Notes: a model not told the origin generated them from the letters alone. Positions 367-60,935 are shown, counted from the stretch's first letter. The stretch is 64,000 nucleotides of DNA from Candidatus Omnitrophota bacterium (GCA_015233115.1 JADFYJ010000001.1:3084-67083); one strand, 5' to 3'. Translations and numbers: made by a program.

Positions 367-498
367 ATCAAGTTTGGTCGTTTATGGTTGATAGTTTTTG
401 GTTTTTGGAAAAAGCAATTGATTCCGAATAATTAAAAATTAACAATCTTAACCAACAACCAACAACCAACAACCAACAACCAACAACTAAAATTTTAA
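367..498. repeat. GTTG/CAAC heptad element with perfect (aaccaac)x6 array
   Basis: ggttgatagtttttggtttttggaaaaagcaattgatt...aaccaacaaccaacaaccaacaaccaacaaccaacaac, ends ~15 nt before the ridA RBS. Confidence 0.75.
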
Positions 499-508
499 GG
501 AGTTTTAC

Positions 509-883
509 ATGGAATTTATTTCTTCTGATAAAGCGCCTAAGGCTGTCGGGCCTTATAGTCAGGCAATTTTGGTCGACGGATTTATGTTTTTATCCGGGCA
601 GATTCCACTTGATCCGGCTACAGGGCAGATTGCCGCAGGAGATATTGAAGTGCAAACTCATCAGGTCTTTAAAAATATTAGAGCTGTGTTAGCGGAAAAG
701 CAAATGACTCTTTATCATGTGTTGAAAACAACAGTTTTTATGAAAGATCTCGCGGATTATAAAAAAATGAACGCAGTTTATGATCAGCAATTTTCCGGGC
801 ACAAGCCGGCCCGTTCGACAGTGCAGGTCGCGGCCTTGCCGTTGGGTTCTTTAATTGAAATTGAATGTATCGCAAAAATTTAA
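509..883 (+). CDS. ridA: RidA/YjgF-family reactive enamine/imine deaminase
   Basis: 124 aa; conserved YjgF/RidA core (PKAVGPYSQA..., C-terminal IEIECIA); AGGAG RBS 7 nt upstream. Confidence 0.8.
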   Translation: MEFISSDKAPKAVGPYSQAILVDGFMFLSGQIPLDPATGQIAAGDIEVQTHQVFKNIRAVLAEKQMTLYHVLKTTVFMKDLADYKKMNAVYDQQFSGHKPARSTVQVAALPLGSLIEIECIAKI

Positions 884-964
884 CTTTAGGGGACATGATA
901 CTTAATTCTTGAAAATTTTTTGAATTAAGTTTCGTGTCCCCTTATAACGTGCTATATTAATTTC

Positions 965-1360
965 ATGACCGAAGAGTTTTTTAATAAAGTGGAACGGATT
1001 TGCGAGAAAGATTCCAGGTATAAACCGGAAGTGTATATTTTTGTCATGGAGTCTTTGGCCTATACCCAGAATAAATTTAAAATTCCTAAACATGTTACCA
1101 GCGAAGAGCTTTTACGGGGTATCAAAGATTTTTCAATAGAGTCATTCGGCCCTTTGGCGAAAACGGTTTTTAATCATTGGGGCGTGAAAGAAACTGCGGA
1201 TTTCGGTAATATTGTTTTTAATATGGTGAATAATAATGTTTTATCCAAAACAGAGCAGGATGACATTGATCAGTTTAAAAATCGTTTTGATTTTGAAAAA
1301 GTGTTTGGCCGAGATTATAGAGAAAGTTTAAATCAAAGAGTGAGCAAGTTAAGATTGTAA
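965..1360 (+). CDS. hypothetical protein (131 aa)
   Basis: intact ORF in a coding-dense context; no family recognised with certainty. Confidence 0.45.
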   Translation: MTEEFFNKVERICEKDSRYKPEVYIFVMESLAYTQNKFKIPKHVTSEELLRGIKDFSIESFGPLAKTVFNHWGVKETADFGNIVFNMVNNNVLSKTEQDDIDQFKNRFDFEKVFGRDYRESLNQRVSKLRL

Positions 1361-1365
1361 CGATG

Positions 1366-1478
1366 TTCGTAGGGGCGATCACCTGATCGCCCGTAACAAA
1401 ATTATCTTTTTTATTAAAAATGACGATTAGAAAAACAATTTGTTTGTGAGCGGGTGATCGGGAGATCGCCCCTACGAC
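1366..1478. repeat. palindromic TIR element, family 'taggggcgatcNcctgatcgcccgt' (copy A)
   Basis: arms gtaggggcgatcacctgatcgcccgtaac ... gggtgatcgggagatcgcccctacgac around an AT-rich core; related copies at 23667, 45551 and 63883. Confidence 0.7.
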
Positions 1479-1528
1479 ATGCTACATGCCATGTACTACA
1501 TGCGTGAATAATCGAAAGGAGTGATTCA

Positions 1529-2089
1529 ATGGCCGGTATTATTTTAGCTATTCTAGTCGGAATGTTTGTATTAGCTCTTGTCACTGTCGTATCGATTTAT
1601 AATTCTTTAATTCAAATCCGGGTTAGCGTGAAGAATGCCTGGTCGCAGATCGACGTGCAGTTAAAGCGCCGGCATGATTTGATTCCAAATTTGGTAAACG
1701 TGGCAAAGGGTTATATGGCGCATGAACGCCAGACACTTGAGGCAGTTATTAAAGCGAGACAACAAGCGATCGATGCCAGCACACTAAAAGATAAACAACA
1801 GGCTGAGAATTTTTTGAGCAGTACTTTACGTTCATTATTTGCGGTTTCTGAAAATTATCCGAATCTTAAAGCTGACCAGCAAATGAAGCAATTACAGGAA
1901 GAGCTCGTCTCAACAGAAAATAAAATTGCTTTTGCCAGACAATTTTATAATGATGAAGCTGGCCGGTATAACACGGCTATTCAAACAGTCCCCAATAATA
2001 TCATTGCTTCAACATTTCATTTTGAGGCCCAGGAATTTTTCCAAATTCAAGACGCAGCAGAAAAGCAGGCACCTGAAGTTAAATTTTAA
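1529..2089 (+). CDS. lemA: LemA family membrane protein
   Basis: N-terminal TM then LemA core (YNSLI..R..V..AWSQIDVQLKRRHDLIPNLV, NYPNLKADQQ); paired with a downstream M48 peptidase, as LemA genes usually are. Confidence 0.85.
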   Translation: MAGIILAILVGMFVLALVTVVSIYNSLIQIRVSVKNAWSQIDVQLKRRHDLIPNLVNVAKGYMAHERQTLEAVIKARQQAIDASTLKDKQQAENFLSSTLRSLFAVSENYPNLKADQQMKQLQEELVSTENKIAFARQFYNDEAGRYNTAIQTVPNNIIASTFHFEAQEFFQIQDAAEKQAPEVKF

Positions 2090-2092
2090 TCC

Positions 2093-3769
2093 ATGCCTTA
2101 TTCCTTTGTCGAAATAGAGAGACAAAAAACTCATACTATAAAATGGGTGTTGTTCTTTTTATTGCTGATTTATGTTTGCTCCTTCCTGATTATTTATCTC
2201 ATATGTAAAAATTGGTTTATGTATAAAACGGCTTCGTCTTCGTCGGAATATTATCATTGGCAATGGTTTTCCTTTAAAGAAATGCTGTGGGCATTTATGG
2301 CTGCGGCGTTGGTTGTGCTTTGGCAATGGTTGGTGGCAACTTCTGAATTAATGAATCGCTTTATTGGCATTTTGAACGCAGAACCGGCTAATAAAAATGA
2401 TGCTTACCATCATGTTTTTATGAATATCGTCGAAGAGGTGTCAGTTGCGACTGGGGGAAAAAAGATGGAGCCTTTTGTCGTGCCGACTATGGCGATGAAT
2501 GCTTTTGCTATATCTGATTTCCGGGGCCGCTCTATTATTGGAGTCACAGAAGGTTTGTTAGCGCGTCTGAATCGTCAGCAGATAGAGGCAGTGGTTGGGC
2601 ATGAAGCTGCTCATATTGCTTCTGGTGATTCAGCTCAAACAACGGTTATCAGTTCCTTATTCGAAGGATATAACGCGGCGATTGCTGGTGTGGAAGGAAT
2701 GTTTGGACGAACCAGGAGTTCAAGCTCGCGGAATTCTTTTATGGGATTGGTGATTATTATTTATATCGTCTTGATCATATCGCGATTTATGGCAACCTTG
2801 CTGAAAATGTTTATCGCGCGGGAGCGGGAATACCGCGCTGATGCGATTGCCGTTCGTCTTACTCGGGATCCTTTAAGCCTGGCTGAAGCACTTTACGCGA
2901 TTACGTATCATTGGAAATTACAAGGCATGCCGAGCGCGGAATTAGATTCTATTTTTACGGTCAGTCCTAATCTGACCCCTGATAAAGAGGGAAATAGTTT
3001 AACCGATGAATTGTTCCAGACGCATCCGCCGGTTTTGGATCGCATAAAAATTCTTTTGGACATGGCGCATACAGATCTTAAGAATTTGGTCGAGGACGTG
3101 GACGCTAAAATAGATCATGCGCGGATTGAGGCTCCCGAATTAACTAACCATACGGCACCGACTGGAACCTGGATGGTCAATCATGACAATCAGTGGGAAG
3201 GGCCGTATGGGTTGCAACAAATATCAGGATTGGTTTGGTTCAGACCAGATATGTGGGTAAAGCGCATGGGTGAGGAAACCGTCAAATTCGCGTATGATGA
3301 TCAGGATTTAATTACTATGTTTAAACAACAACATGCAACAGCAGAAGGGGCGATGTGCTGCCCCAAATGTCATGTGGGTCTTGGTGATTTAGAATATGAA
3401 GGCGTTTTAGTCCGTCGTTGTCTGGCCTGCGGCGGCACATTAGTCGGGGAAACGGATGTCCAGAGAATCATTATCCGTCCGGAAGTCGGATTCAGTGACC
3501 GTATTAAAAAAATCGGGGATCAGATTGATAAAAATTATGAAGTTTGGGCCGGACAAAAAATTGACCGCAGTCCAGCGAATTTATTTACGTGCCCCAAATG
3601 CGCCAATGACCGTTGTAAAATGAACCGCATGTTTTATACGGCCGCGTATCAAGTCGAAATAGATAAATGTTTTTATTGTGGTTTGGTGTGGTTTGATAAA
3701 GATGAGTTAGAAATTCTGCAATATATTGTTGAAAAAAGATCGTTGAGCAGCTATGACAACAAATACTGA
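2093..3769 (+). CDS. M48-family (HtpX-like) zinc metallopeptidase with two C-terminal zinc-ribbon modules
   Basis: HEAAH zinc-binding motif plus TM segments; C-terminus has CPKCx13CLACGG and CPKCx11CFYCG ribbon pairs. Confidence 0.75.
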   Translation: MPYSFVEIERQKTHTIKWVLFFLLLIYVCSFLIIYLICKNWFMYKTASSSSEYYHWQWFSFKEMLWAFMAAALVVLWQWLVATSELMNRFIGILNAEPANKNDAYHHVFMNIVEEVSVATGGKKMEPFVVPTMAMNAFAISDFRGRSIIGVTEGLLARLNRQQIEAVVGHEAAHIASGDSAQTTVISSLFEGYNAAIAGVEGMFGRTRSSSSRNSFMGLVIIIYIVLIISRFMATLLKMFIAREREYRADAIAVRLTRDPLSLAEALYAITYHWKLQGMPSAELDSIFTVSPNLTPDKEGNSLTDELFQTHPPVLDRIKILLDMAHTDLKNLVEDVDAKIDHARIEAPELTNHTAPTGTWMVNHDNQWEGPYGLQQISGLVWFRPDMWVKRMGEETVKFAYDDQDLITMFKQQHATAEGAMCCPKCHVGLGDLEYEGVLVRRCLACGGTLVGETDVQRIIIRPEVGFSDRIKKIGDQIDKNYEVWAGQKIDRSPANLFTCPKCANDRCKMNRMFYTAAYQVEIDKCFYCGLVWFDKDELEILQYIVEKRSLSSYDNKY

Positions 3770-6387: not shown

Positions 6388-6981
6388 ATGAAAATTAGCG
6401 GTGGACAATATAGGGGTAGGAATATTTATATGCCAGGGCATATCCGGCCAACGCAGCTGGTAACCCGTAAGGCTGTGTTTGATATTATTGGGCATGATTT
6501 AACGGGTTTGACTTTTTTAGAGCTTTTTGCCGGAAGCGGGGCTATGGGGTTGGATGCTTTGTCGCGTGGAGCGGAAAGGGTGATTTTTGTGGAAAAAGAT
6601 CCTAAATGCCTGGAGGTGATCAGGGAAAATTTGGGCATGCTGCCGCTGGAATTTGATTCAAAAGCCGGTTGGCCATATGAAATTCATGAAGGGGACGCTT
6701 TATTTACTTCCAAAGAGTTTTCCCGCCAAAATCGTAAATTTGATATTGTTTTTGTGGATCCGCCATATGGGATGGCTTTGGGAAAAAAGAGCTTGAAAAC
6801 CCTGGAAGCGTATGATATATTACACCCCACTTCGGAGCTGATTATACAACACGAAGAAGGCGAGATTCTACCTGAAAGTTTAGGTAGATTTTGTCTTTAT
6901 AAGCACCGATTATACGGGAAATCAGCGATTGATATATATCATGTGAGCGAGAATCAAATAAGTGACCAAGTGACAGAGTAA
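6388..6981 (+). CDS. rsmD: 16S rRNA (guanine966-N2)-methyltransferase RsmD
   Basis: SAM motif LELFAGSGAMGLDALSRGA and DPPY catalytic motif; conserved position upstream of coaD. Confidence 0.8.
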   Translation: MKISGGQYRGRNIYMPGHIRPTQLVTRKAVFDIIGHDLTGLTFLELFAGSGAMGLDALSRGAERVIFVEKDPKCLEVIRENLGMLPLEFDSKAGWPYEIHEGDALFTSKEFSRQNRKFDIVFVDPPYGMALGKKSLKTLEAYDILHPTSELIIQHEEGEILPESLGRFCLYKHRLYGKSAIDIYHVSENQISDQVTE

Positions 6982-7200
6982 CCGAGTAACAGAGAAAAAG
7001 CGATTGCTTAAAAGCGATAGATTGGCCAAGTTCTGTTATAGAAGTTAATAAGAAAAGTCTGTTAAAAATATTATAAGATTTGTTATTTCATGTTTAGGCG
7101 TATTTTATTAATTTTTATCTTTTGAAGAATTTTTGATTTTTTAACGTTTTATTGTTTTTTACTTTGTTACTCTGTTACTAGGTTACTCGGTTACTATTAA
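6962..7200. repeat. GTNAC octamer-array cassette, inverted arrays bracketing an AT-rich spacer
   Basis: left array gtgaccaagtgacagagtaaccgagtaacagag followed by gaaaaagcgattg; right array ttactttgttactctgttactaggttactcggttact ends 15 nt before the coaD ATG; 8-bp period. Confidence 0.75.
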
Positions 7201-10404: not shown

Positions 10405-10452
10405 AATAATTAACAACCAAAAACCACTAACCAAAAACCATCAACCAACAAT
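10405..10452. repeat. CAAC-heptad array (aaccaNNaacca...)
   Basis: acaaccaaaaaccactaaccaaaaaccatcaaccaaca directly upstream of fabD. Confidence 0.6.
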
Positions 10453-10461
10453 AATTCTTTT

Positions 10462-14613: not shown

Positions 14614-14734
14614 CGCGCGGTAGGGCGGTTAGCATTTAAACCAAATCCTTCGCTCAAACAACCTTGGCGAAGCGCCAAGGAAACTCGCGCGGGGATTCGG
14701 TTTTAACGCCAACCTTGAGTTGGGGCACGCGGTT
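14614..14734 (+). repeat. ~120-nt structured intergenic element, family R1, copy 1 (variant central hairpin)
   Basis: gcgcgcggtagggcgg...tttaaaccaaatccttcgctcaaa-[ccttggcgaagcgccaagg]-...ggattcggttttaacgcc...ggcacgcggtt; the central stem differs from other copies but stays self-complementary. Confidence 0.8.
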
Positions 14735-14779
14735 ATTGGTTTGATTAGATTTTTCTTATTGCGTAGTTATAACTGCGAT

Positions 14780-15136
14780 TTACAAATCGTTTTTTATAAT
14801 CTGCAGGATTTTGGTTTCATTAACGGGTTTAATCAGAGGGATAGTTTTTAGTTCCGCAACTTCTGTCTGCTGTCTGTGCTCAATCAAAGTAATAATTTTC
14901 AGCCCCGGCCGTTTTGTTCGTATATTTAAAATGTCGTCTTTAATTGGGTCAATGGTTTCGAGGGTGCTCAGATCTAAAATTAACATGGAAATTTTTGCGT
15001 CATGTTCCAGGCAGTCAAAGACCTGCAGTGTGCTGTCCGTCAAAATTAATTCATGGCGTTGAAACAATAAGCGATGAAATAGTTCTAGCGTCTTTTTGTT
15101 ACTGGAGAAAATAAGCGCGCGGGGAAATTGGTTCAT
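14780..15136 (-). CDS. receiver-like (CheY-fold) protein, possibly atypical
   Basis: 118 aa; receiver-like layout with candidate acceptor Asp in LILDLS and a conserved Lys region, but the N-terminal acidic pair is not obvious. Confidence 0.5.
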   Translation of the reverse strand: MNQFPRALIFSSNKKTLELFHRLLFQRHELILTDSTLQVFDCLEHDAKISMLILDLSTLETIDPIKDDILNIRTKRPGLKIITLIEHRQQTEVAELKTIPLIKPVNETKILQIIKNDL

Positions 15137-15675
15137 AAGGTTGACGGAGTCATAACGGAAATATATTTAGCGAGTATTGAACCGTTATTTTTTATGACAT
15201 GTTCTTTAGTGGCGTCAAGATGGATGGAATGATTCTTGGGTAGACGGATTGGCTCCCCATCAATGAGAATTTCGATCTCACCGGACAAGACAAAAATAAA
15301 TTTTTCTGAACCAATAGATCCTTTTTCTTTATCAGTATGCCCTTTAGGCTGTAGTTGCACCAGTAGGGGGAGAAGGCGTCGATTGGAAACGCTTTGTGAT
15401 AAAATTTGAAAGCTAAGTTTAGGATTGGCAGCTAAAGCCGCGGCATGCGCCTGGATTTTTTTTTCTTCGTCTTCTCGTAACGCGGCTTGATATAGATCTG
15501 TTAGCGGAACTTGGAGCGAATTGGCAATGTGTAAATGAGAATCAACCGTGCCTTGCATTTTGCAGTTTTCCATGCGGCTTAAGGTGGCGACTTGTACGCC
15601 GCTTTTCTGGGATAATTCAACCAGGGTCATATTCTGGGCTTCACGAATTTCTTTAATTTTTTTACCGACAAACAT
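15133..15675 (-). CDS. XRE-family HTH + cupin-domain transcriptional regulator
   Basis: HTH_3 (IKEIREAQNMTLVELSQKSGVQVATLSRMEN) then a cupin beta-barrel; start moved to the internal ATG at 15675, which has an AAAGGA RBS (the ORF-track start at 15735 gives a 20-aa leader). Confidence 0.75.
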   Translation of the reverse strand: MFVGKKIKEIREAQNMTLVELSQKSGVQVATLSRMENCKMQGTVDSHLHIANSLQVPLTDLYQAALREDEEKKIQAHAAALAANPKLSFQILSQSVSNRRLLPLLVQLQPKGHTDKEKGSIGSEKFIFVLSGEIEILIDGEPIRLPKNHSIHLDATKEHVIKNNGSILAKYISVMTPSTL

Positions 15676-16146
15676 AGCTGTCCTTTCGTAATTATTGAAT
15701 AATATTTTAACAAAAATTGCGGAATAATCAAACATTTTCTTGTTTTGATTTAATGCGAATAACTATTTAATCAAATAATTTGACAAAAAGACAAATTAAT
15801 GTTATATTTTGAACATCAGCAAAAGTCGTTTTGATAATTTGTATTCCGGGTGCGCGGTAACTAAGGTAAACTAGGGAATTATCTTAGGGGGTTGTGAGGG
15901 AAAGCGAGAACGCTGCGCTCCCGGAATATTAAATAAAATGGTTTATGGTTAATGGTTTTGGAATTTGAAGTATTAATTTTTAAAAGTATTGGTTTTTAAT
16001 TAATAATAAAAAAAAATTTGTCGCGGCCATTTTAGGACCTGAAAACTTCCCATCATTATAATAAATATTAAAGTTGTTTTGATTTTTTCTACCTCTCATG
16101 TTACATTATCTAATCATTAACATAATATTCGTATTCTAGGCGCGCT

Positions 16147-16185
16147 AACAACCAAAAACCATCAACCAAAAATCAACAATATCAC
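16147..16185. repeat. CAAC-heptad array
   Basis: aacaaccaaaaaccatcaaccaaaaatcaacaat immediately upstream of the 16190 CDS. Confidence 0.55.
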
Positions 16186-17924: not shown

Positions 17925-17990
17925 AAGTTTAGTTTTTTGTTTTTTCATTGTTACATTGTTACACTGTCACATTGTTACAATTAAAATTTA
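17925..17990. repeat. GTNAC octamer array
   Basis: cattgttacattgttacactgtcacattgttacaa, 8-bp period, ends ~15 nt before an AGGAGG RBS. Confidence 0.65.
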
Positions 17991-19118: not shown

Positions 19119-20480
19119 ATGAAGTCTTTTGGTTATGTATTGCTGGTCGCGGTTATATTAACCGGTGGAGTCAAGCAAGTGTGGGCGGATAATGTGGCTT
19201 CTATGGAGGAACGGTTGCAAGCGTTGGAACAGGAAGTCGCGATTTTAAAACGTCAGATTGAAATTGATAAAGAAGAATCATCGAAAAAACTAGAAACTGT
19301 ACCCATTGTTACTGTCGGCATTAAAGATGGTTTACAAATCAAAACGCCGGACGAGAGCTATAAGTTGAAAATCGGCGGTTATGTACAGGCAGATGCCAGG
19401 TTTTTTGCGAATAACGGGAATACAAAAGAATTGTTGGGGACAACAGATACATTTTACGCGCGGACTGTCCGTTTAGTGTTTCAAGGAACTGTATCCAAAT
19501 ATTTTGATTTTTATATCGCTCCGGAGTTTGGTTCGAGCACGATTTCTTTACCGGATGCTTACGCGGAATGGAGAATTAACCCGGCATTTAAGATTCGCGG
19601 CGGAAAATTTAAAGCTCCTTTTGGATATGATAGATTAGAATCGACACCGGCATTAATTTTCGCGGAACCGGCTTTGGTAGAGAATTTAGCGCCTAATCGG
19701 GATCTGGGATTTCAGCTTTCAGGTGATTTGTGGAAAAGCACGTTGAGTTATGCTTTGGCAGTAACCAATGGCGTGCAGGATGCCGGCGGCACGAGTACGG
19801 TCAAGGATACCAATAATGGAAAAGAAATTGGGGGCAGGATTGTTGTTCAGCCTTTTAGCAATACTGACTTGCTGTCTTTACGTAAATTGGGTGTGGCCGG
19901 AGCATTCAGTTACGGGCATAAGGAAGAAACTTTATCTGCCAGCCCGGCTTATGTCACAGCCGGACAATCAACTTTTTATTCTTTAACCGGCACAGCCAGC
20001 GGAGCACAAAGCCGGTATTCTCCGCAGATATTTTATTATTTTAATTCTTTAGGGTTTTGGAGTGAATACATGTCGTCGCAAGAGCAATTAGTGAAGACAA
20101 CTAAGAAACAGAAGATCAGAAATGATGGCTGGCAGGTCGCGGCGTCATATGTTTTAACTGGTGAAGACGCGTCTTACAAAGGCGTCACACCTAAACATCC
20201 TTTTGATTTGTCCAAGGGCCAATGGGGTGCTTTTGAAATCGCTGGACGATATAGCTCGCTGGATATTGATAACAAAGTGTTTGATTCTAATCTGACTAGT
20301 ACGTTGATTACGACCTCAGCTGCGGCAGCGGGTGCTTGGACTGCGGGATTAAATTGGTATATCAATAATAATGTCAAATTTGTGTTAAATTATGAACAAA
20401 CCAAATTCAAAGGTGGAGCAGTTAATGGGAGCCGTCTGACTGAAAATTTAATTCTCAGTAGATTACAATTAGCTTTTTGA
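19119..20480 (+). CDS. outer-membrane porin, phosphate-selective porin O/P family, with N-terminal coiled coil
   Basis: signal peptide, coiled-coil stretch, beta-rich body ending in an aromatic C-terminal residue (F); sits upstream of the sulfate ABC transporter. Confidence 0.6.
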   Translation: MKSFGYVLLVAVILTGGVKQVWADNVASMEERLQALEQEVAILKRQIEIDKEESSKKLETVPIVTVGIKDGLQIKTPDESYKLKIGGYVQADARFFANNGNTKELLGTTDTFYARTVRLVFQGTVSKYFDFYIAPEFGSSTISLPDAYAEWRINPAFKIRGGKFKAPFGYDRLESTPALIFAEPALVENLAPNRDLGFQLSGDLWKSTLSYALAVTNGVQDAGGTSTVKDTNNGKEIGGRIVVQPFSNTDLLSLRKLGVAGAFSYGHKEETLSASPAYVTAGQSTFYSLTGTASGAQSRYSPQIFYYFNSLGFWSEYMSSQEQLVKTTKKQKIRNDGWQVAASYVLTGEDASYKGVTPKHPFDLSKGQWGAFEIAGRYSSLDIDNKVFDSNLTSTLITTSAAAAGAWTAGLNWYINNNVKFVLNYEQTKFKGGAVNGSRLTENLILSRLQLAF

Positions 20481-21542: not shown

Positions 21543-21775
21543 ACAAGGTCACAACGTCACAAAGTCACAAGGTCACAAAGGTCAATTTTGAAAAATATTG
21601 AAAAACGAATTATGTTTGTTATTAAATGTTTTAGATAAAAAATTAGCGTGTTGATTTATTGATCTTATTTTGATTATTTTTAATTTTTTTGTTACGTTTT
21701 GTTTTTTATATTTATTCCCTTGGTGACTTTGTGACTCTATGTGCAACCTTGAGTGTGCCTTGTGACCTAAAAGGA
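21543..21775. repeat. GTCAC octamer-array cassette (inverted arrays bracketing an AT-rich spacer)
   Basis: gtcacaacgtcacaaagtcacaaggtcacaaagg after the sbp stop; cccttggtgactttgtgactctatgtgc...ccttgtgacc before cysT. Confidence 0.7.
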
Positions 21776-22619: not shown

Positions 22620-22621
22620 AG

Positions 22622-22700
22622 AAGGTTTTTGGTTTTTGGAAAAAGCGATTATTTTCAACAACCGATAACCAACAACCAACAACCATCAACCATCAACCGA
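22622..22700. repeat. GTTG/CAAC heptad element
   Basis: ggtttttggtttttggaaaaagcgatt...caacaaccgataaccaacaaccaacaaccatcaaccatcaacc upstream of cysW. Confidence 0.65.
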
Positions 22701-22713
22701 ATAACTATATATT

Positions 22714-23532: not shown

Positions 23533-23666
23533 AAGTGGTAAAGGGGGTAAAGGGGGTAAAGGAAAAAGCGATTGCTGGAAAAGCGATTGGTGGAAGAAAA
23601 ATGATTAAGGGATAAGTATTGAGCTTTTTGTTTTGTTGTTTTAATTTTTAAAAATGATTGACGCTG

Positions 23667-28305: not shown

Positions 28306-28315
28306 ATAATATATT

Positions 28316-28430
28316 ATGTGGTTTTTGGTTTTTGGATGTTGGTTTTTGGTTGTTGAGAAAAATCGCTTTTTCCTAAAACTAAAAACTCTCAACCATTAAC
28401 GGTGAAACCAACGATTTCAACAATTTCAAC
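28316..28430. repeat. GTTG/CAAC heptad element
   Basis: gtggtttttggtttttggatgttggtttttggttgttgagaaaaatcgctttttcctaaaactaaaaactctcaaccattaacggtgaaaccaacg. Confidence 0.65.
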
Positions 28431-28453
28431 ATTTATGAAAAACAGATTTAAAA

Positions 28454-28572
28454 CGCGCGCGGTAGGGCGGGTTGCATTTAAACCAAATCATTCGCTCAAA
28501 CAGCAGCTCCTAAGCGGAGCTGAACTCGCTCGGTGATTCGGTTTCAACGCTAACCTTGGAATTGGGCACGCG
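28454..28572 (+). repeat. R1 structured element, copy 2
   Basis: cgcgcggtagggcgggttgcatttaaaccaaatcattcgctcaaacagcagctcctaagcggagctgaactcgctcggtgattcggtttcaacgctaacc...gggcacgcgc. Confidence 0.8.
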
Positions 28573-28592
28573 CATATATGATTTAATCGCTT

Positions 28593-29603
28593 ATGAAAAA
28601 TTTATTTATAGTTTGTGGATTGTTGATTGCCATATTTTTATTGCCTTGCTGTGCTCACGCTAACGACCAGGTTTTCAAAGAATACTATGAAGTTCGCAAT
28701 TATTTTGGTACTGCTGTTTCTATTCATGCCTATTATGATCCCAAAATTGACATTGCCTCAGCGGTTCGGGAATGTTGGCAAAAGGCTGATCAAATTCAAT
28801 ATAATATGAATATTTATGATGAGAAAAATCAGGGGGACCTTAATCGGCTGAATAAATCAGGACTTAATGGCGTTCAAGTGAGTGATGATGTTTTTACCAT
28901 ATTTAAACATTCGCTTGAATTTTCACGACTGACTGGTGGAGCGTTTGATGTGACTGTATTACCTTTGATCAAATTGTGGAAAAAATGCGCAAAAGAAGGG
29001 CATCTTCCAGATCGAAAAATATTAGAACAGGCTAAAGCGAAAGTTGGCTGGCAGAATATTCGTCTTAAAGAACCGAATATGGTTTTTTTGATGAAACAAG
29101 GCATGATGGTGGATTTTGGTTCGCCTTCATCCGGATATTTTTGCGATGCTTTAGCCAAAATATTGGAACAACATAATATTCATGATTTTTTAGTTGATGG
29201 CGGAGGGGAATTGTATTACAAGGGGAAAGAAAAAGGAATCATTCCCTGGCGAGTAGGCATTGAAGATCCCTTTCAAAAAGATAAAATTTTGGCTGTTATA
29301 GAATTACGGGATAGGGGGGTATCAACTTCAGGAAATTACGAGAAATTCGTGACCATTGAGGGGCAAAAATATTCGCACATTATTGATCCGGTCAGCGGTT
29401 ATCCCCAAAAAGACACAGTCAGCGTAACCGTGATCGCGGATACTGCGGAAACCGCCAATGAATTGTCTACTGGTTTATGTGTGATGGGCGGACAAAAAGG
29501 CATTGCGCTCATCCGTTCATTGAAAAATATTGAAGCATTGATTATAGAAAACAAGAATGGCATTATAACGCGCTACCAAACTGATGGCTTTTTACCAAAT
29601 TAA
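28593..29603 (+). CDS. apbE: FAD:protein FMN transferase ApbE (lipoprotein)
   Basis: lipoprotein signal (LLPCCA), ApbE conserved blocks (GGAFDVTV, STSGNYE..., HIIDP). Confidence 0.85.
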   Translation: MKNLFIVCGLLIAIFLLPCCAHANDQVFKEYYEVRNYFGTAVSIHAYYDPKIDIASAVRECWQKADQIQYNMNIYDEKNQGDLNRLNKSGLNGVQVSDDVFTIFKHSLEFSRLTGGAFDVTVLPLIKLWKKCAKEGHLPDRKILEQAKAKVGWQNIRLKEPNMVFLMKQGMMVDFGSPSSGYFCDALAKILEQHNIHDFLVDGGGELYYKGKEKGIIPWRVGIEDPFQKDKILAVIELRDRGVSTSGNYEKFVTIEGQKYSHIIDPVSGYPQKDTVSVTVIADTAETANELSTGLCVMGGQKGIALIRSLKNIEALIIENKNGIITRYQTDGFLPN

Positions 29604-29707
29604 TTTCAACAATTTTAACAATTAGCCTCAAAAATACTCCTTGACATAGATAATCCGGTTGATATAATTTACGAACAATTTAAACTTGTTATTTTAGAAA
29701 GAGATAG

Positions 29708-30067: not shown

Positions 30068-30074
30068 AGTAAAA

Positions 30075-30150
30075 ATTTTATGGTTTTTAGTTGTTGGTTG
30101 TTGAATGTAATCGCTTTTTCCAAAAACCATGAACCATCAACGATTCAAAT
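30075..30150. repeat. GTTG/CAAC heptad element
   Basis: ggtttttagttgttggttgttgaatgtaatcgctttttccaaaaaccatgaaccatcaacg. Confidence 0.65.
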
Positions 30151-31470: not shown

Positions 31471-31784
31471 CACCGGAAACAATCATCCACGCTGCTCCTC
31501 ATGGAAAGAAAAAATTGACATTGGAAGATAAGCTTTATTTGGTTAAAACCAAAAAAGATAACATCAGCCATATTACGATTGAACATAAAAAGTGCACGCG
31601 GTGTCAGAATAAAGTTTGTTTGCGGGTGTGTCCGGCGAATACCTATGAAGAACGCGACGGAAAAATTGAAGCTGCTTATGAAAATTGTTTGGAATGCGGC
31701 AGTTGTAAAGTAGCATGTCCTGAAGGCGCAATTAAATGGGAAAATCCCCGCGGAGGTTTTGGGGTGACATTTTTGAATGGATGA
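31467..31784 (+). CDS. fixX: ferredoxin-like protein FixX
   Basis: CTRCQNKVCLRVCP ... CLECGSCKVACP ... WENPRGGFGV; start set to the ATG at 31467 behind a GGAGG RBS. Confidence 0.75.
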   Translation: MTPETIIHAAPHGKKKLTLEDKLYLVKTKKDNISHITIEHKKCTRCQNKVCLRVCPANTYEERDGKIEAAYENCLECGSCKVACPEGAIKWENPRGGFGVTFLNG

Positions 31785-31787
31785 AAT

Positions 31788-31870
31788 AAGGGTTTTTGGT
31801 TGTTAGTTTTTGGTTGTTGGTTGACTAGACTAATTATTTTTTCCAAAAACCATCAACTATCAACAGTAAA
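31788..31870. repeat. GTTG/CAAC heptad element
   Basis: gggtttttggttgttagtttttggttgttggttgactagactaattattttttccaaaaaccatcaactatcaacag. Confidence 0.65.
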
Positions 31871-31881: not shown

Positions 31882-32052
31882 ATGGCACATGTAATTGGCG
31901 GGGCTATCGCAGTGGTTTTAGGTGTGGCAGGAATTATCGGCTGGTGGGATAATTTTGGTGATTTTTTACGCGGTGGTATTCCTTTGGCTCTTTTCCTCGG
32001 TGGTTTAATTGCCGTGAATACGGGAATCAAATTTTTAAAGGAAAAGAAATAA
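31882..32052 (+). CDS. 56-aa two-TM membrane protein, MamI-like candidate (absent from the ORF track because <60 aa)
   Basis: AAGGAGAGG RBS 5 nt upstream; MAHVIGGAIAVVLGVAGIIGWWDNFGDFLRGGIPLALFLGGLIAVNTGIKFLKEKK. The G..GWW..FLRG..P.AL..LGL.A pattern matches my recollection of MamI. Confidence 0.5.
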   Translation: MAHVIGGAIAVVLGVAGIIGWWDNFGDFLRGGIPLALFLGGLIAVNTGIKFLKEKK

Positions 32053-32301: not shown

Positions 32302-32394
32302 TTTTTTTGAGAAGATCGAAGTTAGACAATAGAAGATAGAAAAAGCGGTTGATTAAAGAAATAATTTTTATTTTTTTGGTTTTTAGTTTTTGCA

Positions 32395-32460
32395 TTGTCA
32401 CGTTGTTACGTTGTCACGTTGTTACGTTGTCACGTTGTCACGTTGTCACGTTGTTACTAT
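32395..32460. repeat. tandem 16-bp repeat (ttgtcacgttgttacg)x~4, GTNAC octamer type
   Basis: tgtcacgttgttacgttgtcacgttgttacgttgtcacgttgtcacgttgtcacgttgttac immediately upstream of the protease gene. Confidence 0.8.
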
Positions 32461-36672: not shown

Positions 36673-36845
36673 TTTATTTTGGTTTTTGGTTGATAGTTTT
36701 TGGTTGATGGTTATGAAATGATTCTCCAAAAATTAAAAACCTTTTACAACAACATATTTTATTTAATTGGTTATTGGTTTCGGTTATTTAAATATTTCGT
36801 TTTTTCCAAAAACCACTAACCATCAACAATCAACCAGCAAAATTA
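36672..36845. repeat. GTTG/CAAC heptad element (two modules)
   Basis: ttttggtttttggttgatagtttttggttgatggtt...ctccaaaaattaaaaacc and ggttattggtttcggtt...cgttttttccaaaaaccactaaccatcaacaatcaaccagc. Confidence 0.65.
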
Positions 36846-39539: not shown

Positions 39540-39660
39540 GCGCGCGGTTGGGCGGTTTGCATTTAAACCGAATCCTTCGCTCAAACAGCAGCTCCTAAGC
39601 GGAGCTGAACTCGCTCGGTGATTCGGTTTCAACGCCAACCTTGTATTTTGGCACGCGGTT
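39540..39660 (+). repeat. R1 structured element, copy 3
   Basis: gcgcgcggttgggcggtttgcatttaaaccgaatccttcgctcaaacagcagctcctaagcggagctgaactcgctcggtgattcggtttcaacgccaacc...ggcacgcggtt. Confidence 0.85.
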
Positions 39661-40560: not shown

Positions 40561-40697
40561 GGTAGGGATGTGTGCAATGGGCGTCGTTTCAACCAAGTCC
40601 TTCGCTCAAACAGCAGCTCCTAAGCGGAGCTGAACTCGCTCGGGGACTTGGTTTTCACTCTGCCTGAGCAAGCGCAAGGTTTGTGGCATGCAAACTA
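40561..40697 (+). repeat. R1 structured element, copy 4 (divergent flanks, conserved central hairpin)
   Basis: ...tttcaaccaagtccttcgctcaaacagcagctcctaagcggagctgaactcgctcggggacttggttttcac... Confidence 0.7.
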
Positions 40698-40716
40698 AAA
40701 TTTAGAAAATAAAGCT

Positions 40717-43424: not shown

Positions 43425-43545
43425 GCGCGCGGTAGGGCGGTTTGCATTTAAACCAAATCATTCGCTCAAACAGCAGCTCCGAAGCGGAGCTGAACTCGCT
43501 CGGTGATTTGGTTTCAACGCTAACCTTGGATTTGGGCACGCGGTT
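43425..43545 (+). repeat. R1 structured element, copy 5
   Basis: gcgcgcggtagggcggtttgcatttaaaccaaatcattcgctcaaacagcagctccgaagcggagctgaactcgctcggtgatttggtttcaacgctaacc...ggcacgcggtt. Confidence 0.85.
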
Positions 43546-43580
43546 AATGAAATGTTTTTAAAAATTTATGAGAATTAATT

Positions 43581-48189: not shown

Positions 48190-49069
48190 GGGACCTAAAA
48201 CTCCACAAAAATGTGAGTCATGCGCGCGGAATACTATTTTAGCCGGTCTTTTAGCAAATTTTTTTCTTGCGGCTTTTAAGCTTTTTGTTGGTTTTTTGGG
48301 ACGCAGCCGCGCTTTGATCGGAAGCGGTTTATGCAACTTGAGCGATGTGGGTTCGTCGTTTGTGGTTATCATTGGTATCAAATTTTCCAAGAAGCCGGCA
48401 GACCATCGTTATCCATATGGATATGGTAAAGTCGAGTTTATCGCTCAAGTCGTCATGAGCGTTACCATGATTTTGGGTACAGTTGCGCTTATTTTAAGCT
48501 CGTTCATTGTCATTGCTAAACGGACGCTGGTGGTTCAGCATATGGTGGTATTTTTTGTGGCTATTTTGAGCGCCATCATTAATGCTTTGCTTTTTAAATT
48601 TTCACATTGCGGCAGTAAAGAGCTTAATAGCCCGTCGTTAAAGGCGCATGCTGAACATAACAAGATTGACGTTATTTCTTCTTTACTGGTTGCGATCGGG
48701 GTTATTGTGACCCGTAAAGGTATGCATTGGGTTGATCCAGCAATTGCTATTTTCGAGTGCGCCCATGTTTTGCATGGCAGTATGGGTATTTTAAAAGAGG
48801 GGCTTAAAGGGATTATGGATACCAATCTTCCTGACAGCTATCTGGAAAACGTAAAAAATACTGTTTTACGGGTTAAAGGGGTTAACAAAGTAAATCTGGT
48901 TAAAGGCCGCCAGTCTGGACGGCATATTGTGTTAAACATTATCATGCAATTGAACCCTGATATTACGGTTCTGGACGCTAAGAAGATTAATCAGTCAGTA
49001 AAAGCCTATTTACGCGGTGAAGATAAACATATTGGTAACATTTCAATACAGGTCGTTCCAGCAGAGTAA
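48179..49069 (+). CDS. cation diffusion facilitator (CDF) transporter, MamB/MamM-like
   Basis: 6 TM with a CDF metal site (H/D in TM2/TM5: ...NLSDVGSS..., ...SLLVAIGV...), C-terminal cytoplasmic domain; ATG 48179 chosen (TTG 48173 possible). Confidence 0.75.
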   Translation: MKHKGPKTPQKCESCARNTILAGLLANFFLAAFKLFVGFLGRSRALIGSGLCNLSDVGSSFVVIIGIKFSKKPADHRYPYGYGKVEFIAQVVMSVTMILGTVALILSSFIVIAKRTLVVQHMVVFFVAILSAIINALLFKFSHCGSKELNSPSLKAHAEHNKIDVISSLLVAIGVIVTRKGMHWVDPAIAIFECAHVLHGSMGILKEGLKGIMDTNLPDSYLENVKNTVLRVKGVNKVNLVKGRQSGRHIVLNIIMQLNPDITVLDAKKINQSVKAYLRGEDKHIGNISIQVVPAE

Positions 49070-49320
49070 CAAAGTAACCGAGTAACAGAGTAACAGAGAA
49101 AAAGCGGTTATAGGGATAGGCGATGATTAGAAAAGCGATTGGTTTGAAGTAAAACGATAAATAAATAAGGTGAAAATTGCTTTATTTTAATTTATAAATT
49201 GTGAAATTGAATTTATGAGATTTCTTGTTTGATAATTTTTGTCGATAGTTTTTGCTTTTTTGTTTTTTTACTCGGTTACTAGGTTACCCGGTTACTTTGT
49301 TACTTTTAAGTTAGGATAAG
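49066..49320. repeat. GTNAC octamer-array cassette bracketing an AT-rich spacer
   Basis: gtaacaaagtaaccgagtaacagagtaacagag+gaaaaagcggtt ... ttttactcggttactaggttacccggttactttgttact; right array ends ~15 nt before the ATG. Confidence 0.75.
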
Positions 49321-50288: not shown

Positions 50289-50411
50289 GCGCGCGGTTGG
50301 GGCGGTTTGCATTTAAACCAAATCCTTCGCTCAAACAGCAGCTCCTAAGCGGAGCTGAACTCGCTCGGGGATTCGGTTTCAACGCAAACCTTGTGTATGG
50401 GGCACGCGATT
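50289..50411 (+). repeat. R1 structured element, copy 6
   Basis: gcgcgcggttggggcggtttgcatttaaaccaaatccttcgctcaaacagcagctcctaagcggagctgaactcgctcggggattcggtttcaacgcaaacc...ggcacgcgatt. Confidence 0.85.
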
Positions 50412-50491
50412 GAGGATGTACGTGAAGATATCGACATTTTATTACTTGGTTACTTTGTCACTATCAAAATTAATATATAAACGGAGGCAAT

Positions 50492-51373: not shown

Positions 51374-51493
51374 ACAAGCTGACAAAAAAAGTGATACTGT
51401 GACAACGCAATAAAGATGTTTTTTGTGGATCCCCGATTCAAGCATTCGGGGATGACATATTTAATTTTAATTTATTTTTTGTTTTTACTACAT

Positions 51494-51533
51494 ACGACAT
51501 GCTACATACTACATGCTAGTCGAAAGGTAATTT
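51494..51533 (+). promoter_or_regulatory. conserved upstream motif shared by both lemA-family genes (cgacatgctacat..ctacatgc..tcgaaagg)
   Basis: compare 1475-1528 upstream of lemA: cgacatgctacatgccatgtactacatgcgtgaataatcgaaaggag. Confidence 0.4.
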
Positions 51534-52330: not shown

Positions 52331-52365
52331 AATTATAATGTTGGTTTTTGGTTGATGGTTTTTGG
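52331..52365. repeat. GTTG heptad array
   Basis: atgttggtttttggttgatggtttttggataaag. Confidence 0.55.
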
Positions 52366-52435
52366 ATAAAGAATAAATGTTATTTCAAAAAATAAAGAAA
52401 CTATGAACTATTAACCGTGAAACTTGGAGAACCCA

Positions 52436-55472: not shown

Positions 55473-55770
55473 ATTGAGTGACCGAGTAACCGAGTAACCG
55501 AGTAACAATGTGACAGAGTAAAAGCGATTGGCAAAACCTAGCTATTTGAAGAATTATTGCAAAAAAAATGCAGGCAGCTCAGAATTTGAAAGAAGAACGG
55601 CGAAAATAAATCGCATGGCTCAATGCGGGTAAATATTTTAAGCTTTGGTTTACAGTATTTGTTAAGTTTTTTTTATTGTTATTTTTACTTTAAGTTTTTT
55701 TAATTGAAGCTTTTTCGAATTATTTTACTTTGTTACTTGGTTACTCGGTTACTCGGTTACTTTTTCAAAG
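55473..55770. repeat. GTNAC octamer-array cassette bracketing an AT-rich spacer
   Basis: gtgaccgagtaaccgagtaaccgagtaacaatgtgacagagtaaaagcgattgg ... ttttactttgttacttggttactcggttactcggttact then an AGGAG RBS. Confidence 0.75.
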
Positions 55771-57533: not shown

Positions 57534-57544
57534 GAAAGGTAACT

Positions 57545-58471: not shown

Positions 58472-58528
58472 GGAATAGCAGGTCGTAAATAAAACGACAA
58501 ATATTGAAAATACTACAAGGGAAATAAC

Positions 58529-59650
58529 ATGTCAGTTGAAAATGCAAAATCATATTATTTAGGAAAAGATGGCTGCAAAAAATCGAATTGCGCGGAAGCT
58601 GTGGCTCATGCCTTTAAAGATAAATTTAACATGACGGACGAGGAAATTGCGTTATTCGCTCGCTGGGGCGGCGGACAGTCGCCAGAGGGGCAGTGCGGCT
58701 CATTATACGCGGCAAAGGTGATGTTGGAAAAAAAGTATCCAGAGCAAATCAAGGTCTGCGAAAGTGTTTTTTTATCAACCGCTGGTTCGCTTAAATGTAA
58801 AGACATCCGTTCCTTAAAGAAGTTGTCATGTTTAGGATGTGTCGAAAAAGCGGGAGAATTTTTAGATCAAATTGATGATTCCGGAGGCCAGATTATAAAA
58901 GATAAAAGTGATTTATCGGGAGGGGATAAGAAAATAATCGATGCGTGTGGATTGCAGTGTCCGGGTCCGATTATGCTCATCAAGCAGGCCATTGACCAAA
59001 TTCAGTTTGGTGAAACGATTGAAATCGCGGCTACAGATCCCGCCTTTCCGGCTGATGTGCGGGCATGGTGTCAGAGCACTGGAAATGAATTGGTCAATTT
59101 AAAATTGGAACACGGTCGTACTATAGCTATTATACGAAAAAAGGAAAAATTAGCCGTTGCGGGAACGCCGGTTAACGGAGTTCTGTCAAAAACAATTGTG
59201 GTTTTTAGCAGTGATTTTGATAAAGTTATTGCTTCTTTTGTTATTGCTACCGGCGCAGCGGCTATGGGAAGTAAAGTGACAATGTTTTTCACGTTTTGGG
59301 GTTTGAATGTTCTGCGCAGGTCAGAATCTGTTCCGGTGAAAAAGAATTTAGTTGAGCAGATGTTTGGCTGGATGATGCCCAGAGGCGCTGACAAGCTTTC
59401 GCTTTCTAAAATGAACATGTCCGGAGCCGGGACATGGATGATTAAGGAAATCATGAAGAAAAAAAATATTTCTTCTTTGCCGGAATTTATGCTGAGCGCC
59501 AAGCAATCAGGAGTAAGGCTGGTAGCTTGTACTATGTCTATGGATCTCATGGGTATCAAACCAGAAGAGCTGATTGAGGGCGTAGAATTCGGCGGTGTAG
59601 CTACTTATCTGGAGCAGGCGGATCAGGGGAATGTGAATTTATTTATTTAA
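58529..59650 (+). CDS. three-domain fusion: C_GCAxxG_C_C-type redox module + TusA-like + DsrE/DsrF-like
   Basis: N-terminus CKKSNCAEAVAHAF...QCGSLYAA...LSCLGC; middle CGLQCPGPIMLIKQAI (CPxP TusA motif); C-terminus DsrE-like with ACTMS cysteine. Confidence 0.6.
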   Translation: MSVENAKSYYLGKDGCKKSNCAEAVAHAFKDKFNMTDEEIALFARWGGGQSPEGQCGSLYAAKVMLEKKYPEQIKVCESVFLSTAGSLKCKDIRSLKKLSCLGCVEKAGEFLDQIDDSGGQIIKDKSDLSGGDKKIIDACGLQCPGPIMLIKQAIDQIQFGETIEIAATDPAFPADVRAWCQSTGNELVNLKLEHGRTIAIIRKKEKLAVAGTPVNGVLSKTIVVFSSDFDKVIASFVIATGAAAMGSKVTMFFTFWGLNVLRRSESVPVKKNLVEQMFGWMMPRGADKLSLSKMNMSGAGTWMIKEIMKKKNISSLPEFMLSAKQSGVRLVACTMSMDLMGIKPEELIEGVEFGGVATYLEQADQGNVNLFI

Positions 59651-59738
59651 AATTAATTTGTACAAAGGGCTGAATCCGTTTTGCTCTTGACGAATACAAA
59701 AGAATATATTATATTCAAAATAGAAATGAGGTGATCAT

Positions 59739-59981
59739 ATGTCCAAGACAATAACCATGAGACTTTCCGATGAGGATTATAAGGTGATTTCCAGCGCGGC
59801 TCATCATGAACGACGGCCGATTTCAAATTTTATTACGCATAGGGTCATGGAGGCAATTGCCAATATGAATACTGTTGATGATGCGGAGATGAAGGAAATT
59901 GTTTCTGATGCCAAGGTAATGAAAAGTATCGGAAGAGGTCAAAAGCTATTTGCGCAAGGGAAGGGCCGGCTCGTTGTTTAA
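59739..59981 (+). CDS. ribbon-helix-helix antitoxin (CopG/DUF1778-like)
   Basis: 80 aa; KTITMRLSDEDYKVISSAAHHERRPISNFI = RHH strand-helix. Confidence 0.55.
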   Translation: MSKTITMRLSDEDYKVISSAAHHERRPISNFITHRVMEAIANMNTVDDAEMKEIVSDAKVMKSIGRGQKLFAQGKGRLVV

Positions 59982-60261
59982 TTTTCAAATTTTTGAAACA
60001 CAAGACTACCTTGACCATCTTGAAGAACTGCTAGGGAAAAAACAAGAAACTTTTAATAAAAAACTTCAGGAATATGTTTACCCGCAGCTTAGGAACCAAC
60101 CATATTTTGGAAAAAATATTAAAAAATTAAAAGCCTGTTCTTATCCGACCTGGCGTTATCGTGTTGGAGATATTCGTCTTTTCTACCAAATTGATTCCCT
60201 TGGAAACATTGTTCTTTTGACCGCCGCCATGCTTCGTAAAGACGCGTACCGCAATATTTGA
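59950..60261 (+). CDS. type II toxin, RelE/ParE family
   Basis: C-terminal YRVGDIRLFYQID..IVLLTAA...KD signature; overlaps the antitoxin; start codon uncertain. Confidence 0.6.
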   Translation: MRKGRAGSLFNFQIFETQDYLDHLEELLGKKQETFNKKLQEYVYPQLRNQPYFGKNIKKLKACSYPTWRYRVGDIRLFYQIDSLGNIVLLTAAMLRKDAYRNI

Positions 60262-60480
60262 TAGAGAGATTGCTTATTTCCGTAAAGTCGGTACTCACGA
60301 TCTTTTAAGAAATCCATAAATAATCACATTATTTGCTGTTTTGTTACGCTAAAAACATTTTAAAACTTTTTATTTATTAATTATATATATATAGTATACT
60401 ACTTCAGATCATCCAAAAATGAATTCATTCTAAGCCGCAAACTTCAAAAAATAATTTACGTAAAAGGGTTTATCTATATA

Positions 60481-60822
60481 ATGTTTTCGCCCATTAAGAA
60501 TCAAATGGTCTCTTTTTTGACCGAACAGGCTCGCGCGGGAATCAAAAAACTTGATAAAAATTCTTTAGCTGCGCAGGAATTAAGCGAACTGGATGTGGAT
60601 ACAGTATTAAAAGAAGATATTCAGCAATTCTGCGATGTGATGACCTTTCCTGAGATGGTCAAGATTATGTCTTTAGGCGCGACTATAAAATTAAATGCTG
60701 ATTCAGAAAACGCGAAAGCGGACATTAAAAAGATCGCTAAAACTTTGGTGGAACGGGTAGAAAAGAAACAGGTAAAAATTAAAACTCCGGAATCGTGCCG
60801 CGAGTTGCTTTTTAATCTTTAA
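60481..60822 (+). CDS. hypothetical protein (113 aa)
   Basis: intact ORF, lysine-rich C-terminus, no recognisable family. Confidence 0.4.
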   Translation: MFSPIKNQMVSFLTEQARAGIKKLDKNSLAAQELSELDVDTVLKEDIQQFCDVMTFPEMVKIMSLGATIKLNADSENAKADIKKIAKTLVERVEKKQVKIKTPESCRELLFNL

Positions 60823-60837
60823 AGGGGACGGTATTTT

Positions 60838-60935
60838 TAATATGATGGTTGTTGGTTGTTAGTTTTTGGTTGATGGTCGAAGAAATTAATCGTTTTTTCC
60901 AAAAACCAAAAACCATCATCCATCAACGGGAAATT
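60838..60935. repeat. GTTG/CAAC heptad element
   Basis: gatggttgttggttgttagtttttggttgatggtcgaagaaattaatcgttttttccaaaaaccaaaaaccatcatccatcaacgg. Confidence 0.65.

Follow-up and report, generated by a model that had tools for sequence, protein, structure and literature searches.

The question raised by a 64,000-nucleotide stretch of DNA from Candidatus Omnitrophota bacterium (GCA_015233115.1 JADFYJ010000001.1:3084-67083; hereafter, the window) is why one family of heptad repeats recurs in spacer after spacer upstream of its genes. Each full element places an array of GGTT-type heptads and a complementary array of AACC-type heptads on either side of a short core, and a first-pass annotation had taken the consistent position of these elements as a sign of promoter or 5′-untranslated region (5′-UTR) function. 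Our analysis favors a different explanation, wherein the family probably consists of small, non-coding, dispersed foldback insertion elements with slippage-prone arms, resembling MITEs (miniature inverted-repeat transposable elements) or the hairpin-forming doublets of repetitive extragenic palindromes (REPs) called REPINs.

The window, from a magnetotactic Omnitrophota genome whose FixC-like protein is 100% identical to NCBI MBF0477882.1, has a G+C content of 40.7%, a strong excess of G over C on the + strand and a coding density of ~91%. Within it, the core ATCGCTTTTTCCAAAAACC is matched eight times with three or fewer mismatches, where 0.15 matches are expected. Arrays of GGTT with a 7-nt period number nine and those of AACC number seven, versus 0.23 and 0.03, respectively, in 100 dinucleotide shuffles, and the same arrays are also listed by TRF. 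When the window was searched with an nhmmer profile made from an alignment of nine copies, the nine full copies were returned along with two arm-only matches (10412-10459 and 16147-16185), and these sites are exactly the ones named in the first-pass annotation. Thus, the repeat family is real, and its nine full and two half copies amount to approximately one per 6 kb.

A full element measures ~80 to 125 bp and has a fixed order of parts: an AT-rich end resembling AATATWATGTT, a long arm of three to six imperfect GGTTNNN heptads, a spacer of 5 to 30 nt, the core AATCGCTTTTTCC, a short arm of two to four NNNAACC heptads (the first mostly AAAAACC) that directly adjoins the core, and a tail, ATYAACGGTGAAAC. 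Arm length ranges from two to six units among the copies, and most of the arrays are imperfect (72-86% matches by TRF). In most copies the arrays are flanked by the conserved, non-repetitive ends AATATWATGTT and ATYAACGGTGAAAC. The core is asymmetric and is the complement of a box, GAAAAAGCGATT. In two copies (400 and 22631) it is found on the − strand, in the others on the + strand, and the orientation split is 7 to 4 when half and degenerate copies are counted. Since either arm complements the other, the 5′ position is taken by the G/T-rich arm whichever strand is read, and therefore the G-heptads always appear on the left and the C-heptads on the right. The asymmetry of the arms, wherein the core sits at the short arm and the spacer at the long arm, inverts along with the core, which indicates that whole elements were inserted in either orientation.

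The evidence that carries this interpretation comes from related genomes. We compared the window with GCA_015233195.1, GCA_015233235.1, GCA_015233405.1, GCA_015232235.1 and a set of ENA contigs, which have the same gene order and roughly 78% amino-acid identity to the window (range 50-93% over 38 genes). The orthologous junctions of all nine full copies and of the half copy at 10412 are without the element in these relatives, wherein the spacers measure 0 to 50 bp versus 75 to 287 bp in the window. Indeed, the element profile finds no match in 97 kb of related Omnitrophota loci.

The first full copy (370-495, − strand, E = 1.8e-22) occupies the leader of ridA (start 509), whose upstream region in the relative L137 has no element. 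Its box, GAAAAAGCAATTG, reads on the + strand at 408-420. Its long G-arm, read on the opposite strand, is a perfect (AACCAAC) x5.4 array according to TRF, at 450-487 rather than the six units at 457-498 given earlier. The half copy between fabH and fabD (10412-10459, − strand, E = 0.013 over the arm positions only) comprises the left terminus and a heptad arm without the core, in a spacer of 91 bp that is 7 bp in L137. The other half copy (16147-16185, − strand, E = 0.0015) is a heptad arm only, located 5 to 9 nt before a response-regulator gene (start 16190); its array is missing from the orthologous L137 spacer, whose flanks are only partly alignable. A copy with six heptads in its long arm (22620-22713, − strand, box at 22639-22651 on the + strand) fills the entire 94-bp spacer between cysT and cysW, two genes that overlap as TAATG in the relative L108.

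The remaining copies all have the + orientation. One follows an Ion_trans_2 gene (28306-28409, core at 28361-28380) and is itself followed by an unrelated ~120-bp GC-rich repeat and then by apbE, giving a spacer of 287 bp that corresponds to 50 bp in L108, with flanks that can be aligned left and right of the insertion. The copy between an HTH_17 gene and fixC (30073-30150) has a perfect core at 30109-30128, and the spacer of 89 bp compares with 6 bp in L108 and with overlapping genes in L109 and L110. Between fixX and a mamI-like gene (stop at 31784, start at 31882), a copy recognized by both its core and the profile (31785-31866) lies in a spacer of 97 bp that is 18 to 26 bp in the same three relatives. 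A tandem pair precedes a mamP-like gene (start 36855): the first copy has a degenerate core (36673-36753, E = 3.8e-14), the second (36762-36843, E = 1.9e-15) ends 12 nt before the start codon, and the 182-bp spacer that holds both corresponds to 5 to 14 bp in the relatives. Another copy with a degenerate core, matched by the profile (52331-52423), separates a LemA gene from a mamN-like gene (CitMHS plus PDZ) in a spacer of 98 bp, which is 10 bp in L138 and ENA contigs. The last copy (60836-60934, core at 60888-60907) forms the best hairpin of the set and is situated between an open reading frame (ORF) of 111 or 113 aa and an ORF for a 287-aa acidic protein (start 60971); here the spacers are 148 bp in the window and 12 to 14 bp in L138 and ENA contigs.

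The elements are therefore best regarded as insertions, given that the orthologous junctions lack them and the genes on either side are kept. Within the magnetosome region, alignment extends to both flanks of the inserted block. Because four metagenome-assembled genomes (MAGs) and the ENA contigs are all without the elements, insertion in the lineage of the window is far more parsimonious than repeated deletion. This finding runs counter to the earlier suggestion that the repeats might be something other than a transposon. A difference between FixC (89% identity) and FabD (63%) relative to the same MAG had hinted at horizontal transfer of the magnetosome cluster, but we rejected this explanation because the comparison of 38 genes gives identities of 50 to 93% in both regions.

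What, then, accounts for the position of the elements? Every copy is intergenic, and intergenic gaps make up ~9% of the window. Copies begin 4 to 24 nt past stop codons and end 9 to 42 nt before start codons, a close spacing that the first-pass annotation had largely captured; the exception is apbE, which starts ~185 nt away with a second, unrelated repeat between. The same annotation stressed that the elements always lie upstream of genes on the + strand. This is nearly uninformative, since 68 of the 75 ORF-based genes are on that strand. A conserved promoter or 5′-UTR role is disfavored by the absence of the elements from the orthologous junctions, by their presence in both orientations and by the location of several copies within operons, including the cysT-cysW junction where the genes overlap in a relative. 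On the gene strand, the elements hold neither a sigma-70-like promoter nor an intrinsic terminator (a GC-rich stem followed by a T-run), and promoter-like sites around them are not enriched over shuffles. A consensus sigma-70 promoter, with a perfect TTGACA-16-TATAAT and a TG extension, is found at 29641-29668, before the HTH_17 gene with which the fixC-fixX-mamI gene string begins. Three sites (30073, 31785 and 36673/36762) hold copies that lie between co-directional genes downstream of this promoter and thus probably belong to its transcription unit. The minor alternative offered at the outset, a preference in insertion site, agrees with these observations, in that inserted elements would be tolerated only in spacers.

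The paired arms were originally described as an A-B...A′-B′ arrangement and thus not as a simple hairpin. In predicted minimum free energy (MFE) structures, the G-arm nevertheless pairs with the C-arm to give imperfect, bulged hairpins. RNA folds of the copies range from −12 to −28 kcal/mol (z scores of −1.0 to −3.6), whereas single-stranded DNA folds of both strands range from −9 to −17 kcal/mol (z scores of −2.1 to −3.6). The strongest hairpin is predicted for the copy at 60836-60934 (−27.8 kcal/mol). The consensus from the alignment retains 11 conserved pairs essentially without covariation, as is expected because the copies are paralogous, and the profile matches every copy on the opposite strand too. 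These models are consistent with a foldback potential of the elements.

On this basis, the following series of events can be proposed. Copies entered short spacers, rich in AT and immediately past stop codons, in either orientation, among them junctions inside the operons of the magnetosome gene cluster. By analogy with systems of REPs and REP-associated tyrosine transposases (RAYTs), of IS200/IS605-type insertion sequences (ISs) or of MITEs, mobilization may occur in trans through an enzyme that is encoded elsewhere and recognizes the hairpin and core. After insertion, heptads could be gained or lost by replication slippage, and co-transcription with the flanking genes would turn the element into a stem-loop in the mRNA. 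Because only spacers would tolerate insertion, the position before start codons would be a by-product of the compact and almost single-stranded gene layout.

Several points weigh against this reading. Transposition itself is an inference, and the insertions are not datable because the relatives have only ~78% amino-acid identity. The genes of the 64-kb window that were covered by domain scans or by synteny-based annotation include no transposase or recombinase. The extreme termini are without inverted repeats, since AATATWATGTT and ATYAACGGTGAAAC are not complementary and the inverted arrays are subterminal. An unambiguous target-site duplication is also lacking: TA, TAA, AT and TTTATG each fit some junctions in an AT-rich context. 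Moreover, half copies without the core exist, and the core is strongly conserved among diverged copies and also found in other array families, for which selected host function rather than recent copying could be responsible.

This last point leads to the rival that survives best, although we regard it as unlikely: the elements could be RNA elements that were acquired and then kept by selection, acting as intercistronic stem-loops for processing or stability (an RNase III site or 3′-end protection) or offering the C/A-rich arm as an unstructured translation enhancer. Such a role is compatible with copies that lie inside transcription units, 4 to 24 nt after stops and 9 to 42 nt before starts, with a predicted foldback potential that exceeds shuffles, and with a core that is conserved across copies and common to other array families. 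Several of the downstream genes also have no Shine-Dalgarno sequence, as judged by reading the sequence, but the same genes already lack one in the relatives that are free of elements. In those relatives, which have no heptad elements, the same gene orders are expressed; in the window, the elements occur in both orientations, at varying distances from the start codon and without covariation beyond that derived from paralogy.

The box GAAAAAGCGATTG, which is the complement of the core, is indeed common to other intergenic array families with units of 7, 8 and 9 bases. The pattern AAAAGCGRTT has 16 matches in the window (11 of them intergenic) versus 1.3 expected, and an array lies directly 5′ of the box in every case. 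Three modules of ~250 to 290 bp in the same orientation (6961-7196, 49062-49304 and 55476-55762) are ordered as (CAGAGTAA)n, the box GAAAAAGCGATTG, 150 to 200 bp of AT-rich DNA, a T-run and (GTTACTCG)n, ending just before the ribosome-binding site (RBS). They are ~70% identical to each other, and one of them folds with a long-range stem (−75.7 kcal/mol, z score of −7). Another module is composed of (AGAAGAT)n, the box and (TTGTCACG) x7.5 (32310-32457). Further arrays are (GGTAAAGGG) x3 followed by two boxes (23537-23595), (CATTGTTA) x4 without a core (17946-17979), (ACAAGGTC) x5 with complementary GTGAC units downstream (21543-21584 and 21720-21770), and an intergenic array of CATRCTA units (51486-51518). 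A (G)TTTTTT run precedes several of the arrays with 7- to 9-nt units.

The box modules are likewise absent from the orthologous spacers of the relatives, which measure 11 bp between mamB and mamM, 13 bp between the TauE and PDZ genes and 22 bp before mamE, and which are replaced by an overlap between rsmD and coaD. The two checkable ones among the further arrays, at 32310 and 17946, are absent in the relatives as well. Thus, the heptad element belongs to a wider set of foldback modules, each an array plus the box, by which this genome was colonized. In the closest relative, L108, four units of TGGCATG and then AGAGAAAATAGCAAATT follow the hemA stop codon (19690-19735), resembling an array-plus-box module with a diverged box, and this architecture may therefore be older than the lineage of the window.

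Outside this genome, a scan of GTDB species genomes with a 19-mer gave 107 scattered single matches in unrelated taxa (one of them inside carB in L025), which we treated as chance, and a wide distribution of the core was rejected. A metagenome scan gave 26 matches. With the element profile run over all loci, L119 and L121 stood out; further heptad arrays are clear only in these two and possible in L118 and L131. L119 and L121 are overlapping contigs of 62% G+C that are Rubrobacter-like Actinomycetota according to the names of TauE protein clusters. They carry GGTTNTT/AANAACC heptads at four sites (L119 530-685 and 11140-11175; L121 8586-8651 and 10080-10110), three of which lie outside the core pattern used for the search by which the contigs were first found. 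Two of these sites fold as predicted arm-arm hairpins (−38.8 and −57.7 kcal/mol, z scores of about −4), one of which occupies the whole gap between two co-directional genes and stops immediately ahead of the RBS. The hairpins are flanked by GGTCGCTTCGCTCCC and GGGAGCGAAGCGACC. In four near-identical contigs from other samples (L139-L142), two sites show a difference of exactly one heptad: one site has or lacks AATAACC, and the other has two units of GGTTATT or a single one, between almost identical flanks. Length variation of this kind was foreseen in the first-pass annotation. The proposal that the arrays are prone to slippage is thereby supported indirectly, in look-alikes from another phylum and not in the organism of the window.

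Several observations concern these look-alike contigs themselves. L119 ends inside one heptad array, and the assembly thus broke at the repeat. L140 carries an IS630-family insertion (~300-1310; DDE_3 plus HTH_Tnp_IS630) that is absent at the same site in L139, with inverted ends that start CAGCGA and a left end of CAGCGAAG. This IS was considered as a parent of the Rubrobacter-like elements and rejected, because the 7 nt that it shares with the hairpin flanks (AGCGAAG) are too weak a match. In L118 (840-1130, also present in L131; 41% G+C), a non-coding stretch of 1.3 kb includes several C-type heptad runs, such as GTTTTTTCCAAAAACCAAGAACCATAAACCAAAAACT and CCATAAACTATGAAC, that are similar to the window's degenerate copy at 52331.

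The Rubrobacter-like contigs also bear on a bolder version of the preferred reading. The heptad insertion element might be one branch of an undescribed bacterial foldback superfamily, defined by the shared ~13-nt box GAAAAAGCGATTG and by family-specific arms of 7-, 8- or 9-nt units, and these contigs are the reason for placing relatives in distant phyla. We consider this broader grouping quite doubtful. Were it true, it would imply a mechanism of mobilization or arm building that neither MITEs nor REPINs are known to use, for example nicking directed by the box and then synthesis of the arms on a unit template or by slippage.

Variation in unit number is also the starting point of a second rival, which we find hard to credit: simple-sequence expansion in situ, wherein the heptads would arise by local polymerase slippage, an origin that has been proposed for heptamers over-represented in bacteria, and only the ~13- to 20-nt core would be dispersed, landing in or next to existing arrays, much as cyanobacterial small dispersed repeats reportedly do. 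The variable number of heptads, the arrays without a core at 10412, 16147 and 17946, the occurrence of the same box beside unrelated 7-, 8- and 9-nt arrays and the one-unit polymorphism of the Rubrobacter-like strains would all be expected from such a process. Paired heptamer arrays are, in addition, known from Xanthomonas (PMC4692102). However, the relatives have neither arrays nor core at any orthologous junction, so the two appear together, and the conserved non-repetitive termini AATATWATGTT and ATYAACGGTGAAAC that flank the arrays in most copies indicate that the unit was copied as a whole.

A switch at the DNA level, either an inverton between the inverted arrays or a phase-variable spacer that alters downstream expression, is very improbable. 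The core does occur both ways round between its inverted arrays, ridA is preceded by a perfect (AACCAAC) x5.4 tract and, directly upstream of genes, the octamer cousins enclose 150 to 200 bp of AT-rich DNA. However, only ~20 to 45 nt without a promoter-like site separate the heptad arms, and the arm asymmetry inverts along with the core, which is what whole-element insertion in either direction would give. The window also yielded no recombinase gene, and most arrays are imperfect (72-86% matches).

Other candidates were also examined. Against Rfam 15, the elements have no match at the gathering threshold, and the only match below it is to the model of a miRNA hairpin (23.9 bits versus a threshold of 63). 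Small ORFs cross the copies, but the shared DNA is read in differing frames, and coding elements were rejected because a period of 7 nt cannot keep frame. A sigma-54 promoter was rejected on reading the sequence: the spacing of TGG-N9-TTGC in TGGAAAAAGCGATTGC is too long by a base, and the other families that bear the box have no TGG. The heptads do not match the consensus for integration host factor (IHF). They also depart, on reading, from the RYYYAAC...GTTRRRY core-site consensus of integron attC sites, and the neighboring genes are not cassettes but chromosomal genes that are syntenic in the relatives. A blastn search with the copy at 60830-60945 for plasmid-borne mobile DNA returned no match.

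The nearest documented phenomenon is represented by the paired convergent heptamers of Xanthomonas. Paired intergenic heptameric repeats have been described with the unit GGGAATC in Xanthomonas and GGGGAYT in Nostoc (Rehm et al. 2015, PMC4692102). In Xanthomonas, two convergent arrays often form an inverted repeat, with 70 to 75 cases per genome; the arrays lie shortly after the upstream stop codon and mostly between co-directional ORFs, are transcribed and vary in length between related strains (PMC4692102). The element of the window is similar in having at least three tandem heptamers, convergent pairs and a location 4 to 24 nt past the stop. Its unit, GGTTNNN, has only GG runs, which makes three-tetrad G-quadruplexes impossible. 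The Xanthomonas repeats are also without a conserved core and mostly occupy conserved sites, whereas the element described here has a non-repetitive core and conserved termini and is absent from orthologous sites.

REPs and REPINs mobilized by RAYTs are extragenic, dense hairpin repeats of ~100 bp that belong to lineage-specific families (PMC3116915, PMC3733652). The heptad element resembles them in being extragenic, dense and present in both orientations, with a predicted subterminal hairpin and asymmetric flanks. Its aligned copies have no GTAG or CGTC tag at either hairpin foot, however, and its arms are tandem heptads rather than doublets of two inverted REP palindromes. In eukaryotes, Foldback (FB) transposons have inverted arms of short tandem units whose number varies between copies and arms. 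The resemblance is one of architecture only, since FB elements are eukaryotic, reach kilobase scale and have associated coding partners. Cyanobacterial spacers reportedly hold short tandemly repeated repetitive (STRR) heptamers (Mazel 1990) and ~20- to 27-nt dispersed repeats embedded in heptamer arrays (Elhai 2008). The heptad element differs from these in sequence and phylum, and its arrays and core are jointly absent from relatives. MITEs of the Correia/NEMIS, BOX, RUP and Chunjie kinds are small, non-coding, AT-rich, multi-copy elements in spacers, wherein Chunjie inserts within operons without destroying them, Correia elements are co-transcribed hairpins and BOX is modular with a variable number of internal units. 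The heptad element shares with MITEs its small size, AT-rich, non-coding and multi-copy nature, placement in spacers and inside operons, and insertion polymorphism relative to related genomes. It differs from bacterial MITEs (reviewed in PMC10969869 and PMC2229807) in having no clear terminal inverted repeats and no identified parent IS, and its target-site duplication is ambiguous.

Slippage-prone heptad arms, an asymmetric core and a shared box together fall outside the standard definitions of MITEs or REPINs, and this combination of traits may point to a route of mobilization that is still to be identified. If the elements are indeed insertions of this kind, they show how a compact operon such as the magnetosome cluster absorbs many hairpin insertions, and they provide natural material on the effects of intercistronic stem-loops on processing and on translational coupling. 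The heptad repeats also break assemblies and inflate apparent "regulatory" spacers in the annotation of MAGs.

Other repeats share the spacers of the window. A GC-richer repeat of ~120 bp (GCGCGGTAGGGCGG...TTTAAACCAAATCATTCGCTCAAACAGCAGCTCC...GAACTCGCTCGGTGATTCGGTTTCAACGC) is found in six of them, always on the + strand (~14620-14740, 28455-28580, 39540-39640, 40565-40700, 43425-43550 and 50290-50420), and the copy at 28455-28580 directly follows the heptad element at 28306-28409. Palindromes with a GTAG tag, GTAGGGGCGATCTCCTGATCGCCC, form inverted doublets (1372-1392/1452-1472, 23672-23692/23747-23767 and 45554-45574/45616-45636) and also occur at 63890-63910. These REP/REPIN-like sequences are a family separate from the heptad element and suggest that the genome also hosts a RAYT-type repeat system.

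Two further features are kept in the relatives. A short 9-nt repeat, TTCAACAAT/AATTTCAAC, stands on both sides of apbE (28409-28431 and 29602-29623) and, unlike the heptad elements, is retained at L108 8397-8416 and L109 731-764; it could be a real motif for regulation or binding. Finally, an apparently structured non-coding block at 15845-15930, upstream of a response-regulator gene, has no Rfam match even at E ≤ 1 and is a candidate leader or riboswitch. It is kept in L137 (~15130-15215), a relative of ~78% identity, with changes on both sides of its CCGG...CCGG stem.

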